Shown here: positions 30,629 to 59,573 of the stretch, in pieces
How positions within the stretch are numbered: the first letter of the stretch is position 1
Layout of the letters: each line of letters begins with the position of its first letter
Source of the DNA: Candidatus Poribacteria bacterium
GTDB lineage: Bacteria; Poribacteria; WGA-4E; PCPOR2b
Assembly: GCA_965208325.1 (NCBI GenBank)
Contig: OZ242326.1
Coordinates: 3,424,001 to 3,488,000 of the forward strand
DNA: 64,000 nucleotides
Direction: 5' to 3'
Made by a program: the position numbers and the translations under genes
The notes under the pieces: model-generated
Seen by the model: the letters and a program-made list of their open reading frames with translations, nothing else
The model's database searches: none
What the model was told of the DNA's origin: nothing

Positions 30629-31114
30629 CTACTTTCTCCGCAGGAAGAGAAAGCTGTACGAGTACGGGTTGTTTTCATCAGGCTGACAGTCGACGCGCTT
30701 GTCCTCTTGCCAGTCTTCCAAATTAAACGCTGGAAAATAGGTGTTGCCTTCAAAGCAGTGATGTATCAGCGTCATATAGATACGTTCTGCCCGCGGCAAG
30801 AACTGCGCGTAGATTGGTGCGCCGCCGCATATCATCACCTCTTCGTGTGTCTTGACGACGTTCAAAGCCTCTTCGACGGAATTCACCACGACGCAGCCTT
30901 CCGCCCGATAACCGCGGTTGCGCGTCAACACAATATTGATACGGTTCTTTAGCGGTTCCCCAACGGTTTCATAAGTCCTACGCCCCATCACCACAGGCTT
31001 GCGCAAGGTCATTCGGAAGAAATGTTTCAAATCGGCGGGCAGATTCCAAGGCAGCCCTTCGCCCGTGCCAATCAGGCGGTTTTTATCCATTGCTGTGATG
31101 ATGGAGATAATCAT
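30629..31114 (-). CDS. folA: Dihydrofolate reductase
   Basis: LPWNLPADLKHF, MGRRTYE, NRINIVLTR, GGAPIY. Confidence 0.95.
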   Translation of the reverse strand: MIISIITAMDKNRLIGTGEGLPWNLPADLKHFFRMTLRKPVVMGRRTYETVGEPLKNRINIVLTRNRGYRAEGCVVVNSVEEALNVVKTHEEVMICGGAPIYAQFLPRAERIYMTLIHHCFEGNTYFPAFNLEDWQEDKRVDCQPDENNPYSYSFLFLRRK

Positions 31115-31126
31115 CGGCGCGCCCCT

Positions 31127-31948
31127 TCACACCACCATCGGCGCTTTTATAACGCCGTGAGCTTTATAATTGCGCAGCTCGATATCCTGCATCTTGAAGT
31201 CGTCAATCGAAGTTATCGTCGGGTTCAGGTAGAGTTCCGGCAGTTGGTGCGGTTGGCGTCCCAACTGCATCTCTACCTGTTCGAAATGGAGGTGGTAGAT
31301 GTGGGCATCGCCCAAAGTGTGGATGAACTCGCCCGGCGCCAGGTCCGTTATTTGTGCGACCATGTGCAGCAGCAAGGCGTATGAGGCGATATTGAACGGC
31401 ACACCAAGAAACATATCACAGCTCCGCTGATACAACTGCAGCGACAATTTTCCGTCAGCCACGAAGAACTGGAAAAGTGTGTGGCAGGGTTCAAGAGCCA
31501 TCTGATCCAATTCCCCCGGATTCCAAGCCGACACCACATGGCGGCGGCTGTAGGGTTGAGATTTAATGCCTTCGATAACATTGGAAAGCTGGTCTATGGA
31601 TTGCCCGTCGCCAGTTTTCCAAGACCGCCACTGCACACCGTAAATTCGCCCGAGATCGCCTTCAAAACGCGCCTTGGGTTTCCAATAATCCGCATCGGCA
31701 TTTGCGTCCCAGATGCGGCAACCTAGCTTCTGGAAATCTTTTACATCGGAGTAGCCTCTCAAGAAGCCCAGCAGTTCTGCCTTCACGCCGGTTTTGAACG
31801 CAAGTTTTTTGGTCGTGACGGCTGGAAAACCGTCCGCCATATCGTATCGCATCTGCATGCCGAACAGTGCGCGTGAGAGGCCGTTGCGGCCGTCGCGATC
31901 CACGCCGTTATCCATAATCTGTTTCAGCGCATCTAAATACTGCTTCAT
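31127..31948 (-). CDS. thyA: Thymidylate synthase
   Basis: MKQYLD, YGVQWR, ALEPCH, QRSCDMFLGVPFNIASY. Confidence 0.97.
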   Translation of the reverse strand: MKQYLDALKQIMDNGVDRDGRNGLSRALFGMQMRYDMADGFPAVTTKKLAFKTGVKAELLGFLRGYSDVKDFQKLGCRIWDANADADYWKPKARFEGDLGRIYGVQWRSWKTGDGQSIDQLSNVIEGIKSQPYSRRHVVSAWNPGELDQMALEPCHTLFQFFVADGKLSLQLYQRSCDMFLGVPFNIASYALLLHMVAQITDLAPGEFIHTLGDAHIYHLHFEQVEMQLGRQPHQLPELYLNPTITSIDDFKMQDIELRNYKAHGVIKAPMVV

Positions 31949-31986
31949 CGTCTCCCGTTCGTGTGTGCGTGGGTTTGAAAATTACG

Positions 31987-32430
31987 CTACGAACTGCTCG
32001 CTTCATCGGTGCTACCAAATCCCCCGCGCGTCTTCGAGTGGGTCTCCGACACTTCCATCCAATCTGCCTGATCGACCCGGACGAAAATCGCCTGCGCAAT
32101 CCTATCGCCGCGCTGTATCGTTACCGTCTGCTCCGAAAAATTGTAAATTTGAATCTTTACCTCATCGTCTTCGCCGCAGTAATCCTGATCGATGACGCCA
32201 ACCCCGTGCGGGATGAGCAACCCGCGTTTGCGAGGCGTGCTGCTGCGCAACGTCACCATCAACATATACCCCGGCGGGGTTTCAACGATGACATTCGCGG
32301 GTACTAGCCCCAATGTGCGCGGTTTAATCGCCACCGATTCTCGGCATACCAAATCAAAGCCGACGGAACCGGCGGTTGCATATTGCGGTAGCGGCAGGTT
32401 CTTGTCCAGCCGTTTGATTTTAACTTTCAT
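31987..32430 (-). CDS. dut: dUTP diphosphatase
   Basis: GSVGFDL, RSS, GVIDQDY, GDRIAQ, RGGFGST. Confidence 0.93.
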   Translation of the reverse strand: MKVKIKRLDKNLPLPQYATAGSVGFDLVCRESVAIKPRTLGLVPANVIVETPPGYMLMVTLRSSTPRKRGLLIPHGVGVIDQDYCGEDDEVKIQIYNFSEQTVTIQRGDRIAQAIFVRVDQADWMEVSETHSKTRGGFGSTDEASSS

Positions 32431-32486
32431 CAAATACCCATGAATCAAAGGTCGCCGCTAACGGGAATGAACCCAATTTATTGATG

Positions 32487-33276
32487 AGAAACCGAGTTTT
32501 TTTCTTCAAAACTCGGTTTCTTCTTAATACGTTAAGGCACGGGAATTCCGGCTACCTTGCACTCCACGCGATAAATTGAAGTAGACGCCGTGATGAAAAG
32601 CGATTTCCAATCACCGCCGCCCCAAGCCAGATTGGCTGTGCCGATGCAAAACCGAGTTTTTTCTTCAAAACTCGGTTTCTTCTTAATACGTTAAGGCACT
32701 TGAATTCCCGAAACCTTGCACTCCACGCGATAAATTGAAGTAGACGCGGTAATGAAAAGCGATTTCCAATCCCCGCCGCCCCAAGCCAGATTGGCTGTGC
32801 CGATGAGAAACCGAGTTTTTTCTTCAAAACTCGGTTTCTTTGATGTGCGTTAAGGCACCGGAATTCCGGATACCTTGCACTCGACGCGATAAATTGAAGT
32901 GGACGCTGTGATGAAAAGCGATTTCCAATCCCCGCCGCCCCAAGCCAGATTGGCTGTGCCGATGAGAAACCGAGTTTTTTCTTCAAAACTCGGTTTCTTT
33001 GATGTGCGTTAAGGCACCGGAATTCCGGATACCTTGCACTCGACGCGATAAATTGAAGTGGACGCTGTGATGAAAAGCGATTTCCAATCCCCGCCGCCCC
33101 AAGCCAGATTGGCTGTGCCGATGCAAAACCGAGTTTTTTCTTCAAAACTCGGTTTCTTCTTAATACGTTAAGGCACTTGAATTCCCGATACCTTGCACTC
33201 CACGCGATAAATTGAAGTAGACGCTGTAATGAAAAGCGATTTCCAATCACGCCCGCCCCAAGCCAGATTGGCTGTA
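32487..33276. repeat. 159-bp tandem array: REP-like hairpin + copy of the gluconolactonase 3' end (4 extra copies)
   Basis: Stop-codon TTA at 32532, 32691, 32850, 33009 and 33168; each unit carries GAAACCGAGTTTTTTCTTCAAAACTCGGTTTC. Confidence 0.95.
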
Positions 33277-34052
33277 ATTTCCGGTATTTTTATGATGCCG
33301 AGGTGTTTACCCGATGCATCGAAAATCCAAACTCCGCCAGGCCCCGTCGCATAAAGGTTGCCCCGCACGTCAACCTTCATTCCGTCCGGCACACCATTTT
33401 CTCCAGATTCCTCGGCGAAAACTCGGCCGTTTCCAAGCGTGCCGTCGGGTTGAAGGTCAAAAGCGCGAATGTGCATTCGGGCGGTATCATCAACGTATAG
33501 AATCGATTCGTCCGGCGAGAAGCAAAGTCCGTTAGGGCGGTCAAAATCATCGGCGAGAAGCGTCAGAGTCCGGCAATCAGCGGACAGCCGATAGACGCCT
33601 TGGAAGCCGAGTTCTTGCCCTTTGGTTTCCCCATCATCATCCATGATGCCGTAAGGCGGGTCGGTAAAGTAGATGCTCCCATCCGATTTCACAACCACAT
33701 CGTTCGGGCTGTTCAACCGCTTTCCGTTATAGTGCGCGGCGATTGAGATGATTGTCCCATCGGCTTCCGTTCGTGAGACACGGCGGTTCCCATGTTCGCA
33801 TGCAATCAGCCGCCCCTGTTTATCATAAGTCAAACCGTTCGAGCTTCCCGATGGAGATCGGAAGTTTGTGATTCCGGAATCGGGGCTCCACCGTTTTATC
33901 TGATTTGCGGGAATGTCACTGAACAGCAGATACCCCGCCCCGGCGTTCCAGAGCGGTCCCTCGGTAAACTGGCACCCTGATCCAAGCCGCTCGGCCTGCG
34001 CGTCAGCGTCGACCAAATCCAACAGTTCCGGAGATCGAACTTCAATGCTCAA
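33168..34052 (-). CDS. SMP-30/gluconolactonase/LRE family protein
   Basis: FTEGPLW, SNGL, LNSPND, FTDPPYG, PNGL, PDGM; TTG start after AGGAG. Confidence 0.92.
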   Translation of the reverse strand: MSIEVRSPELLDLVDADAQAERLGSGCQFTEGPLWNAGAGYLLFSDIPANQIKRWSPDSGITNFRSPSGSSNGLTYDKQGRLIACEHGNRRVSRTEADGTIISIAAHYNGKRLNSPNDVVVKSDGSIYFTDPPYGIMDDDGETKGQELGFQGVYRLSADCRTLTLLADDFDRPNGLCFSPDESILYVDDTARMHIRAFDLQPDGTLGNGRVFAEESGENGVPDGMKVDVRGNLYATGPGGVWIFDASGKHLGIIKIPEITANLAWGGRDWKSLFITASTSIYRVECKVSGIQVP

Positions 34053-38854: not shown

Positions 38855-39231
38855 GGGGCTATTGGGAGTGTGGGATGACTCGAAAAGCAGTGGAAAACAA
38901 CCCCTACAATTTCAGCCATGACCTCGGATGGTGCGGTTACCAACCGCACCGTCGGACGGTAATAACACTCATTGGTATGTAGGAGAGGCTTCCTAGCCTC
39001 GATTATCAATCGGTTTTTGTAGATCGGGTTAAGCGATCAACTGAGCAAATTGCGAGTGATTAGCAAGCGCGATAGAGATTCTCAGGTCTATACAACGCGG
39101 ATACTCCACGCACCAAAGCGCCAGCGGCGCGAAAGGTATATAGCATGCGGAGGCACCAAATATCCAAAGCCCCAGCGGGGCGACAGGTGTGTCTGTGAAT
39201 TGTCAAGCGAACCTAGCTTTGGAGGTACATA

Positions 39232-39462
39232 ATGAGCCAAGACGAATTAAGCCCCGACATCTACAAAGAAACACTTGAATTTCTGCGAATTGCCAATCGT
39301 GCCGTCAAAAGAGCGCAGGAAGAAAACCGCAAAAAAGGCATCCCAAACGTCTATTCTTATAACGGTCACATCTACTACGAGCTGCCGAACGGCGAACTGA
39401 CCAAGGACGATCCCCTCAAAGATGCAAATAAACCGGATGGAGATAAAAGCTATTGCAGCTAA
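39232..39462 (+). CDS. 76-aa putative antitoxin-like protein, copy 1
   Basis: GGAGG RBS; 'RAVKRAQEENRKKGIPNVYS..G.IYYELPNG' resembles the small partners of zeta/AAA-kinase toxins (recall). Confidence 0.7.
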   Translation: MSQDELSPDIYKETLEFLRIANRAVKRAQEENRKKGIPNVYSYNGHIYYELPNGELTKDDPLKDANKPDGDKSYCS

Positions 39463-39724
39463 AACTCATTAATTTACTTATCGGTCTGTGGGAGAGGCTT
39501 CCTAGTCTTTTGTAAGTTGGGTTAAGCGATCAATTGAGCAAATTGCAAGTGATTAGCAAGCGCGATAGAGATTCTCAGGGCTATATAACGCGGATTCTCC
39601 ACGCACCAAAGCGCCAGCGGCGCGAAAGGTATATAGCATGCGGAGGCACCAAATATCCAAAGCCCCAGCGGGGCGACAGGTGTGTCTGTGAATTGTCAAG
39701 CGAACCTAGCTTTGGAGGTACATA

Positions 39725-39955
39725 ATGAATCAAGACGAATTAAGCCCTGAAACCTACAAACGCACACGTGAACTACTGCGAATTGGCAATCGCGCCGTCA
39801 AAAGAGCGCAAGAAGAAAACCGAAAAAAAGGCATCCCAAACGTCTATTCCTATAACGGTCACATCTACTACGAGCTACCGAACGGCGAACTGACTAAGGA
39901 CGATCCCCTCAAAGATGCAAATAAACCGGATGGAGATAAAAGCTATTACAGCTAA
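39725..39955 (+). CDS. 76-aa putative antitoxin-like protein, copy 2
   Basis: Same family, with variant N-terminus ETYKRTRELLRIG. Confidence 0.7.
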   Translation: MNQDELSPETYKRTRELLRIGNRAVKRAQEENRKKGIPNVYSYNGHIYYELPNGELTKDDPLKDANKPDGDKSYYS

Positions 39956-40233
39956 AACTCATTAATTTACTTATCGGTCTGTGGGAGAGGCTTCCTAGCC
40001 TCGATTATCAATTGGATTTTCTAGGTTGGGTTAAGCGATCAACTGAGCGAATTGCGAGTGATTAGCGAGTGCGATAGAGATTCTCAGGGCTATTCAACGC
40101 GGATTCTCCACGCACCAAAGCGCCAGCGGCGCGAAAGGTATATAGCATGCGGAGGCACCAAATATCCAAAGCCCCAGCGGGGCGACAGGTGTGTCTGTGA
40201 ATTGTCAAGAGAATCAAGCTTTGGAGGCACACA

Positions 40234-40464
40234 ATGAGTCAAGACGAATTAAGCCCCGACATCTACAAAGAAACTCTTGAAATTTTGCGAATTGCCAATC
40301 GTGCCGTCAAAAGAGCGCAGGAAGAAAACCGCAAAAAAGGCATCCCAAACGTCTATTCTTATAACGGACACATCTACTATGAGCTGCCGAACGGCGAACT
40401 GACCAAGGACGATCCCCTCAAAGATGCAAATAAACCGGATGGAGATAAAAGCTATTGCAGCTAA
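40234..40464 (+). CDS. 76-aa putative antitoxin-like protein, copy 3
   Basis: Same family, close to copy 1. Confidence 0.7.
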   Translation: MSQDELSPDIYKETLEILRIANRAVKRAQEENRKKGIPNVYSYNGHIYYELPNGELTKDDPLKDANKPDGDKSYCS

Positions 40465-40545
40465 AACTCATTAATTTACTTATCGGTCTGTGGGAGAGGC
40501 TTCCTAGCCTCGATTATCAAATAGTCGATACCTCCTTGCGCAAAT

Positions 40546-59538: not shown

Positions 59539-59573
59539 AGAAACCGAGTTTTTTTCTTCAAAACTCGGTTTCT
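59539..59573. repeat. REP-like hairpin of the same family as in the 32.5-kb array
   Basis: GAAACCGAGTTTTTTTCTTCAAAACTCGGTTTC. Confidence 0.85.

Follow-up and report, generated by a model that had tools for sequence, protein, structure and literature searches.

Start-less copies of a gluconolactonase gene end that carry a purifying-selection signature in a REP-linked tandem array of a Poribacteria genome

We noted that a gene of the SMP-30/gluconolactonase family in a Candidatus Poribacteria genome is followed by four further, silent copies of its own end, each of them accompanied by a hairpin. The silent units are as divergent as the orthologues of two species, with the same dN/dS, and they carry the purifying-selection mark of functional alleles rather than that of decay. 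The array thus preserves, in readable coding form, several selection-shaped versions of one gene end. With moderate confidence, we interpret the locus as a REP-linked tandem cluster (flank-REP-flank) that acted as a sink for displaced or imported functional ends by way of recombination between diverged strains. On this interpretation, it would offer a rare direct view of diverged-strain recombination in an uncultured sponge symbiont.

Layout of the array and its neighborhood

The genome is a closed Candidatus Poribacteria MAG, present as a single 4,707,648-nt contig with 49.4% G+C. The source of the MAG is a sponge, and the organism is a sponge symbiont. Positions below refer to the window, the whole 64,000-nt stretch of this contig that was analyzed, unless they are given as genome positions. 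Tandem Repeats Finder reported a tandem array on the minus strand at 32483-33275, with a period of 159, 5.0 copies, 93% matches, 0% indels, and a score of 1321. Together with our reading of the individual units, this confirmed the arrangement proposed in a first-pass annotation of the window, namely, four extra copies of the last 35 codons plus stop at a 159-bp period, each with a hairpin. The array itself is therefore real, and the bounds given in that annotation (32487-33276) are a few bases off. The genes, units (U1 to U5), and hairpins are as follows.

33168..34052, minus strand: SMP-30/gluconolactonase family gene, 294 aa from a TTG start; longest ORF to 34085; PF08450, E 3.1e-56
33117..33275, minus strand: U1, the expressed last 35 codons plus TAA, spacer type A, REP hairpin, and tail TTTTGCATC plus GGC
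32958..33116, minus strand: U2, silent, type B, with G..P peptide, spacer type B, and tail TTTCTCATC plus GGC
32799..32957, minus strand: U3, silent, the same as U2
32640..32798, minus strand: U4, a silent chimera with a type-B-like 5' part, a U1-like remainder, and two private synonymous changes
32483..32639, minus strand: U5, the most distal copy, joined to the ancestral downstream flank and with several states common to the sister species' single copy
33126..33155, no strand assigned: REP hairpin of U1
32967..32996, no strand assigned: REP hairpin of U2
32808..32837, no strand assigned: REP hairpin of U3
32649..32678, no strand assigned: REP hairpin of U4
32489..32519, no strand assigned: REP hairpin of U5 (genome 3456489-3456519)
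31987..32448, minus strand: dUTPase gene, directly downstream of the array and outside it, given for context

Each unit is comprised of 35 terminal codons plus TAA, a 12-nt spacer, a 30-nt hairpin (12-bp stem and 6-nt loop), and a 9-nt tail. Described around the REP element, a unit has a 5' flank of 120 nt and a 3' flank of 9 nt, and the flanks on both sides of the element are repeated. Successive coding copies are separated by only 51 noncoding nt. The tail closes with GGC in U1 to U4, and U5 is without these 3 nt; the sole other difference in length is one additional A within the loop of the U5 hairpin, which has a 7-A loop. There is one hairpin per unit, with no inverted REP doublet (REPIN). 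The hairpin stems are invariant, whereas the spacer and the tail vary freely between units. The coding part of all units contains no stop and no indel, and in the ORF list of the window, no ORF of at least 30 aa in the gene's frame starts inside the silent units. The copies had been described as lacking start codons, indels, and stops, which holds for the coding part. They also had been sorted into four alleles with two copies identical, and this agrees with what we found: U2 and U3 are the same in sequence, giving four distinct versions among the five units.

The region between the duplicated gene ends contains no recombinase gene or element body, and no such ORF is present there. A search of Rfam over 32300-33400, at E values of up to 1, returned only three subthreshold chance matches (one to MIR7504 and two to SSRC10). 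A 232-aa ORF that spans the array (32552-33250) is read in another frame and arises mechanically, since the period is divisible by three. On the plus strand, a small antisense ORF of 33 to 41 aa (MKSDFQSPPPQARLAV...) recurs in each unit across the junction and the hairpin (32590-33354), and it probably is a by-product of the repeat. This ORF was rejected as the cause of the synonymous pattern described below, since it covers unit positions 0 to 46 only and the pattern extends further 3'.

The product of the gluconolactonase gene is classed by PF08450 as SMP-30/gluconolactonase/LRE-like. Its TTG start was taken from a database protein (P0001), and no signal peptide was noted when the translation was read by eye. 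On the other side of the array, thyA and folA come after the dUTPase gene on the same strand. This row of dUTPase, thymidylate synthase, and dihydrofolate reductase genes (30629-32448, minus strand) begins ~35 nt behind the array, counted from the listed ORF start, and its promoter may lie within or beside the repeated units. Elsewhere in the window, a noncoding tandem array is present at 39015-40508 (period of 493, 3.0 copies, 92% matches), with no ORF of at least 90 aa inside it.

Divergence, selection, and recombination among the units

Among 108 coding columns, 12 are variable, and of these, 9 fall on the third, 2 on the first, and 1 on the second position of a codon; the third-position excess has a binomial P of 0.0039. 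The amino acid changes among the units are R/G, S/A, and Q/P. A minimal count gave ~11 synonymous and 3 nonsynonymous changes, and on this small sample of 105 coding nucleotides, the binomial P of the synonymous excess is 5.3e-5 at a synonymous-site share of 0.257 (1.6e-4 when the adjacent pair at positions 23-24 is taken as one event). At the synonymous rate (11 changes over ~27 sites), ~32 changes would be expected on the ~78 nonsynonymous sites without selection, and 3 were seen. The synonymous sites that distinguish the units include unit positions 26, 47, 50, 56, 74, 86, 89, and 98, and two third positions show three different bases across the five units. Between pairs of units, pS was 0.15 to 0.26 and pN was 0.013 to 0.045, so that pN/pS ranged from ~0.05 to 0.27, and dN/dS between units was ~0.1. 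The corresponding values for the whole gene against that of the sister species G002 were a pS of 0.187 and a pN of 0.026. The type-B units are farther still from the G002 tail, with a pS of 0.333 and a pN of 0. The peptide tips of the units are 91 to 100% identical, and there is no gene between them.

The first-pass annotation had described the differences as mostly synonymous with a few replacements (R>G, S>A, and Q>P) and had reasoned that neutral decay would not favor synonymous change. The counts bear out the former statement, and the selection signature and the orthologue-like divergence bear out the latter. Tandem clusters are very common in this genome, which has 119 nonoverlapping arrays with a period of at least 60, and this abundance is what speaks for old tandem duplicates under neutral drift in place. 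We consider such drift extremely unlikely, and it is rejected because 3 nonsynonymous changes were seen when ~32 were expected and because of the synonymous excess (P = 5.3e-5). The 4 × 105 silent coding nucleotides also are free of stops and indels despite pS values of up to 0.26. Concerted evolution in place was rejected as well, as it could not maintain such high synonymous divergence.

Recombination has taken place between units. Unit positions 26 and 47 occur in all four combinations (T/T in U1, G/C in U2, G/T in U4, and T/C in U5), which constitutes four-gamete evidence. U4 is of type B in its first 27 nt and of type A, like U1, in the remainder, and U5 combines G002-like coding states with a type-A spacer.

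The peptides of the units were compared with those of 11 close homologues (P0002-P0008 and P0121-P0124; 92 to 97% identity) at the protein level only. The gene ends of these homologues are G..P in five, G..Q in two, R..P in one, and G..S in two, and the remaining one has an early stop. The peptide of U2 and U3 is the exact tail of 4 of the 11 (P0004, P0007, P0123, and P0124), and P0122 shares the G and P states of these units plus one further change. The U4 peptide is the exact tail of 2 of the 11, P0003 and P0006. The genome's own R..Q end was found in none of the 11 close homologues; when it is counted, all four combinations of R/G and Q/P are found as expressed ends. The match between silent units and expressed alleles is based on 3 amino acid sites. 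A correspondence of the copies with expressed alleles of relatives, put forward in the first-pass annotation as a check, therefore was obtained for the peptides of U2, U3, and U4 and was not obtained for that of U5, which has Ala at unit codon 30 and matches 0 of the 11. The homologue with the early stop is P0121 (97% identity, on a 112,566-nt contig), which ends 17 residues early, inside the repeated unit. The array might have broken or confused another assembly or gene call there; arrays of this kind disrupt short-read assemblies and can cut gene calls short.

A working system, in which selection keeps the silent copies either for C-terminus switching or for hairpins that insulate or stabilize transcripts before dUTPase-thyA-folA, would fit with the intactness of the copies, a period that is a multiple of three, and the location of the array, which shares its strand with the listed dUTPase ORF and precedes it by ~35 nt. 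In addition, two hairpins of the five match a simple terminator pattern on the opposite strand. However, the terminator-like count in the region is 3, equal to the shuffled expectation of 3.0, and a terminator role would leave the codons unconserved. As for switching, a dN/dS of ~0.1 is purifying and not diversifying, and the units differ only at three conservative sites in a cytoplasmic-type enzyme family. With the sister species having one copy, we regard a working system of this kind as very unlikely.

Founding of the array and its presence in independent DNA

Of 40 relatives compared, three belong to the same genus (G001-G003), and in these the match stops where the first unit ends (query positions 1-557 or 1-581 of 1261). 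Read directly, each of them has one gene end. Since these congeners hold one copy, the array is the derived state. In G002, the closest of them (93% nucleotide identity), the gene end is followed by a hairpin with a 7-A loop, the tail, and then the same flank and dUTPase gene, in exact agreement with the surroundings of U5. In the two more distant congeners, that site has only half a hairpin. The 159-nt module was not found elsewhere in the genome, where the matches outside the locus are only hairpin sized (~36 to 40 nt) and correspond to the REP of the query. A pattern of the junction had 0 matches in metagenome_contigs and 0 in genome_contigs, and a degenerate pattern of the coding part had 0 matches in metagenome_contigs; these collections may not include the genome of the window itself.

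The four internal junctions are all alike and read tail CATC, GGC, and ACAGCC. The GGC is absent before U1, where this genome and all three congeners have ATT, and after U5, where AAT is found. The boundary of the unit lies at a fixed 6 to 9 nt past the foot of the hairpin. The four identical junctions point to one founding duplication that was enlarged by homologous exchange and not to four separate replacements, which would need a site-specific process in order to give identical junctions. Most simply, the junctions are read as one illegitimate duplication that added three filler bases, after which the copy number changed through homology. The first-pass annotation had taken the copies for formerly functional ends that were acquired or swapped in sequentially and thus for a REP-bounded record of replacement. 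The functional-end part of that proposal is upheld by the selection signature and by the peptides found in relatives. A clean, ordered record of four independent replacements is not, given the identical junctions, the four-gamete pattern, and the chimeric U4.

The reading that we favor, a flank-REP-flank cluster that took up functional ends, would involve the following steps. The left boundary of the cluster would have happened to fall 105 nt inside the gluconolactonase gene, and one illegitimate duplication would have made the junction, with the tail CATC, the three filler bases GGC, and then ACAGCC. Homologous unequal exchange would then have altered the copy number, with the identity of U2 and U3 reflecting a very recent step. 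The units would be gene-end versions that evolved while they were translated, either within the present lineage or within co-resident, diverged strains of Poribacteria. Recombination out of register would have shifted versions to silent positions; incoming DNA, for example, might have taken the place of the expressed end and pushed the former end inward. The silent copies most likely are by-products without a function of their own, and their REP hairpins most likely remain ordinary REPs. Within this scheme, import from other strains, displacement of ends, and lack of function are the parts that we infer.

Independent sequencing runs were compared as Logan k=31 contigs. The junction is present in independent material: a contig corresponding to 32718-32832 (the U3 tail, the junction, and 80 nt of U4) was found with 0 differences in runs X16 and X17, which are from one study, and an 82-nt version of this contig (32728-32809) was found with 0 differences in run X1, from another study. 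X1 also contains type-B pieces. Compared with the window, the flank contigs of X1 show 20 differences over 204 positions on the dUTPase side and 9 over 382 positions on the side of the gluconolactonase gene. Of the 9 differences that G002 has on the dUTPase side, 7 recur in X1, which has others of its own, so it represents a third lineage, and the junction probably is present in a diverged lineage. In X16 and X17, the coding bins of U2 and U3 (32872-32959 and 33004-33091) had no or almost no cover in these contigs, and X1 covers them; under the rule that applies to such contigs, this gap has no weight as evidence. Array-specific contigs in X16 had depths of 31.5 and 29.9 against a flank depth of ~16, which is about twofold. 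In X17, their depths were 6.3 to 18.8 against ~10, and about twofold in one of five only, and no copy number is derived from these depths. The junction is surrounded by 30 invariant bases, across which k = 31 cannot phase the tail of a unit with the next unit; the copy number, the unit order, and the heterogeneity within a molecule are those given by the assembly alone.

These runs also bear on an assembly or consensus artifact, in which the junction would be real and the five-unit, mixed-allele order would be a mosaic of strains with shorter or uniform arrays. The MAG is from a sponge with several co-occurring close Poribacteria lineages, and the flanks contain many variant letters in runs X1 and X2. 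No k=31 contig extends across the whole array, and P0121 ends 17 residues early inside a unit, as might happen to a gene call where a repeat has broken an assembly. Against these points, the chromosome is in one contig, and the 793-bp array is far below the length of typical long reads, the single contig suggesting a long-read assembly. The units form discrete haplotypes (U2 is identical to U3, and U1 and U4 share their 3' part) and not a site-by-site mix, and contigs specific to U1, U4, and U5 were found with 0 differences in X16 or X17 at depths near the flank depth. Strain mixing would, moreover, still need diverged functional alleles and a real duplication. An artifact of this type therefore seems quite unlikely to us.

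The REP hairpin and comparison with known systems

The whole hairpin has 118 copies in the genome, with at most 2 mismatches per arm, and its 12-nt arm is found 100 times on one strand and 105 times on the other. Only 39 of the 118 copies lie inside open frames of at least 120 codons, frames which cover 87% of the genome, and 25 of the 118 lie at most 40 nt after a stop, compared with 7.0 ± 2.8 at random places. As RNA with its flanks, the hairpin of U2 has a folding energy of -25.7 kcal/mol (z = -6.1), which none of 200 shuffled sequences equaled. Among the 40 relatives compared, 36- to 42-nt stretches of the hairpin with 95 to 100% identity occur many times in other Poribacteria genera. A further single copy is found in the window at 59541-59571 (genome 3483541-3483571).

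Two Y1_Tnp matches are present in the genome, one to PF01797 at 3321944-3322279 and the other at 1955941-1956273. The former lies within a 188-aa ORF (genome 3321737-3322303; PF01797, E 1.6e-9) that has a weak match to the E. coli TnpArep structure PDB 4ER8 (E 0.008). In the region of this RAYT-like ORF (genome 3321583-3322348), the hairpin of the array occurs once just upstream and three to four times just downstream. A REP with a flanking RAYT is the classical arrangement. A GTAG or CGTC tag at one end of the REP is a feature of the Di Nocera classes; no such tag was seen at the REP end when the 118 copies were read across, and the copies mostly are preceded by AAG, GAG, or similar. Judged by its sequence features, this element is a genuine REP, and the genome encodes a RAYT-like transposase. 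This conforms with the first-pass annotation, which had called the hairpin REP-like and had pointed to a possible RAYT: the 118 copies are mostly extragenic, and the Y1_Tnp gene is flanked by the same hairpin.

At least 2 copies of this hairpin are held by 9 of the 119 long-period arrays mentioned above, and the hairpin-bearing arrays that were read are noncoding composites of several hairpin types. Two long, BIME-like composite arrays (genome 4209494-4212600 and 1894624-1897700), with a period of ~193 to 194, consist of the REP alternating with other G+C-rich hairpin repeats, and no convincing ORF was seen in either.

A self-megablast screen of the genome for other repeated gene ends yielded 921 local direct-repeat pairs; in 72 candidates, the repeat included a long ORF's stop codon. 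Eight of the 72 candidates were inspected, and the other 64 were judged from the table only. One of the eight is a second true case, the end of a 728-aa two-domain peroxidase gene (PF00141, E 1.5e-72; genome 674895-675330), which is followed by two more copies of the last ~5 codons plus stop at a period of 87. The first-pass annotation had suggested a scan for other REP-linked 3'-end duplications; the peroxidase case is a duplicated gene end, and its copies each carry a longer hairpin of another family. Of the remaining inspected candidates, one ORF was judged spurious by eye, and the others were not stacks of a gene end and a hairpin; from the coordinates alone, one candidate pair likely represents tandem paralogues, and one overlaps the ORF end by 19 nt only. 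Tandem amplification of the form "flank + hairpin + flank" is a habit of this genome, and the gluconolactonase array is the one case with a flank long enough for selection to be read.

Integrative elements at gene 3' ends supply a new end and push the old one downstream. Serial insertion of a 159-nt mobile module (spare end, REP, and tail) by a site-specific enzyme, for which the RAYT is the obvious candidate, would likewise push the old end downstream. It would account for the identical junctions, for the unit boundary fixed 6 to 9 nt beyond the hairpin foot, and for a most distal unit that joins the ancestral flank and most resembles the sister species; it also would fit with a hairpin that is a REP flanking a RAYT-like gene. 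However, the unit has one hairpin and not two ends, and its left boundary is in the gene, without a hairpin, with ATT before U1 and GGC before U2 to U5. The module is not found elsewhere in the genome, with only hairpin-sized matches of ~36 to 40 nt outside the locus, and the chimeric units are explained equally well by plain homologous exchange. We consider a mobile module unlikely. Also doubtful in our estimation is the broader notion that REP and RAYT drive a general, undescribed renewal of gene ends, in which a minimal cassette (spare end and hairpin) would be copied or inserted at gene 3' ends and housekeeping genes would collect stacks of ends that were in use formerly or as alternatives. 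If that notion held, the present array would be the first case to connect the hairpin with a named enzyme family.

The locus was compared with several known systems in which gene ends are displaced or stored. Silent-cassette systems of the pilE/pilS type are under diversifying selection on a surface-exposed product. Unlike these, the array has a pN/pS of ~0.05 to 0.27 and belongs to an enzyme of the SGL family with no signal peptide noted by eye. The integration of e14 in icd of E. coli, a protein gene, leaves the former 3' end displaced. As at icd, the gene carries a new, mostly synonymous in-frame 3' end, with the former one lying silent downstream. Unlike e14, the array has no integrase, cargo, or element body, it has four reiterations with identical junctions, and only a 12-nt spacer, a 30-nt hairpin, and a 9-nt tail lie between the copies. 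The rhs and cdiA loci show C-terminal displacement and orphan 3' cassettes, with very different toxin ends, immunity genes, and diversifying selection. The array resembles them in that start-less former or alternative 3' ends are stacked behind an expressed gene and are exchanged by homologous recombination; unlike in rhs and cdiA, the ends here are near-identical ends of an ordinary enzyme under purifying selection, with no toxin or immunity gene.

The hairpin, like the REP/BIME elements of E. coli with TnpA-REP, is a short, extragenic, high-copy palindrome tied to a relative of Y1 HUH transposases. Unlike the E. coli elements, it has an unrelated A/T-rich sequence with a CCGAG core, no GTAG was seen among the copies read, and the match of the RAYT-like ORF to 4ER8 is weak (E 0.008). 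Tandem REP clusters usually are dismissed as junk amplification. A brief literature search found no report on REP-linked stacks of gene ends, which is a thin basis for their absence from print.

The closest likeness in arrangement that we considered is with the tandem REPIN clusters of Pseudomonas fluorescens SBW25. According to the excerpted text of the paper on that strain (Bertels & Rainey 2011, PMC3116915), there are 16 such clusters, in which each unit is a REPIN with a 5' flank and a shorter 3' flank, and the authors inferred a second, unknown mechanism for their formation. The array described here shares with the clusters in that excerpt the head-to-tail units of 5' flank, REP element, and shorter 3' flank, as well as a RAYT gene that lies at another place in the genome, next to a cluster of that REP. 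It differs from them, as they appear in the same excerpt, in having a single REP hairpin per unit and a 5' flank that is a coding gene end. Furthermore, the units of the gluconolactonase array are not near-identical and differ like selected alleles. If the REP/RAYT machinery is involved, the array would provide a lead on the origin of REP clusters with flanks, a question that is open in the REPIN literature.
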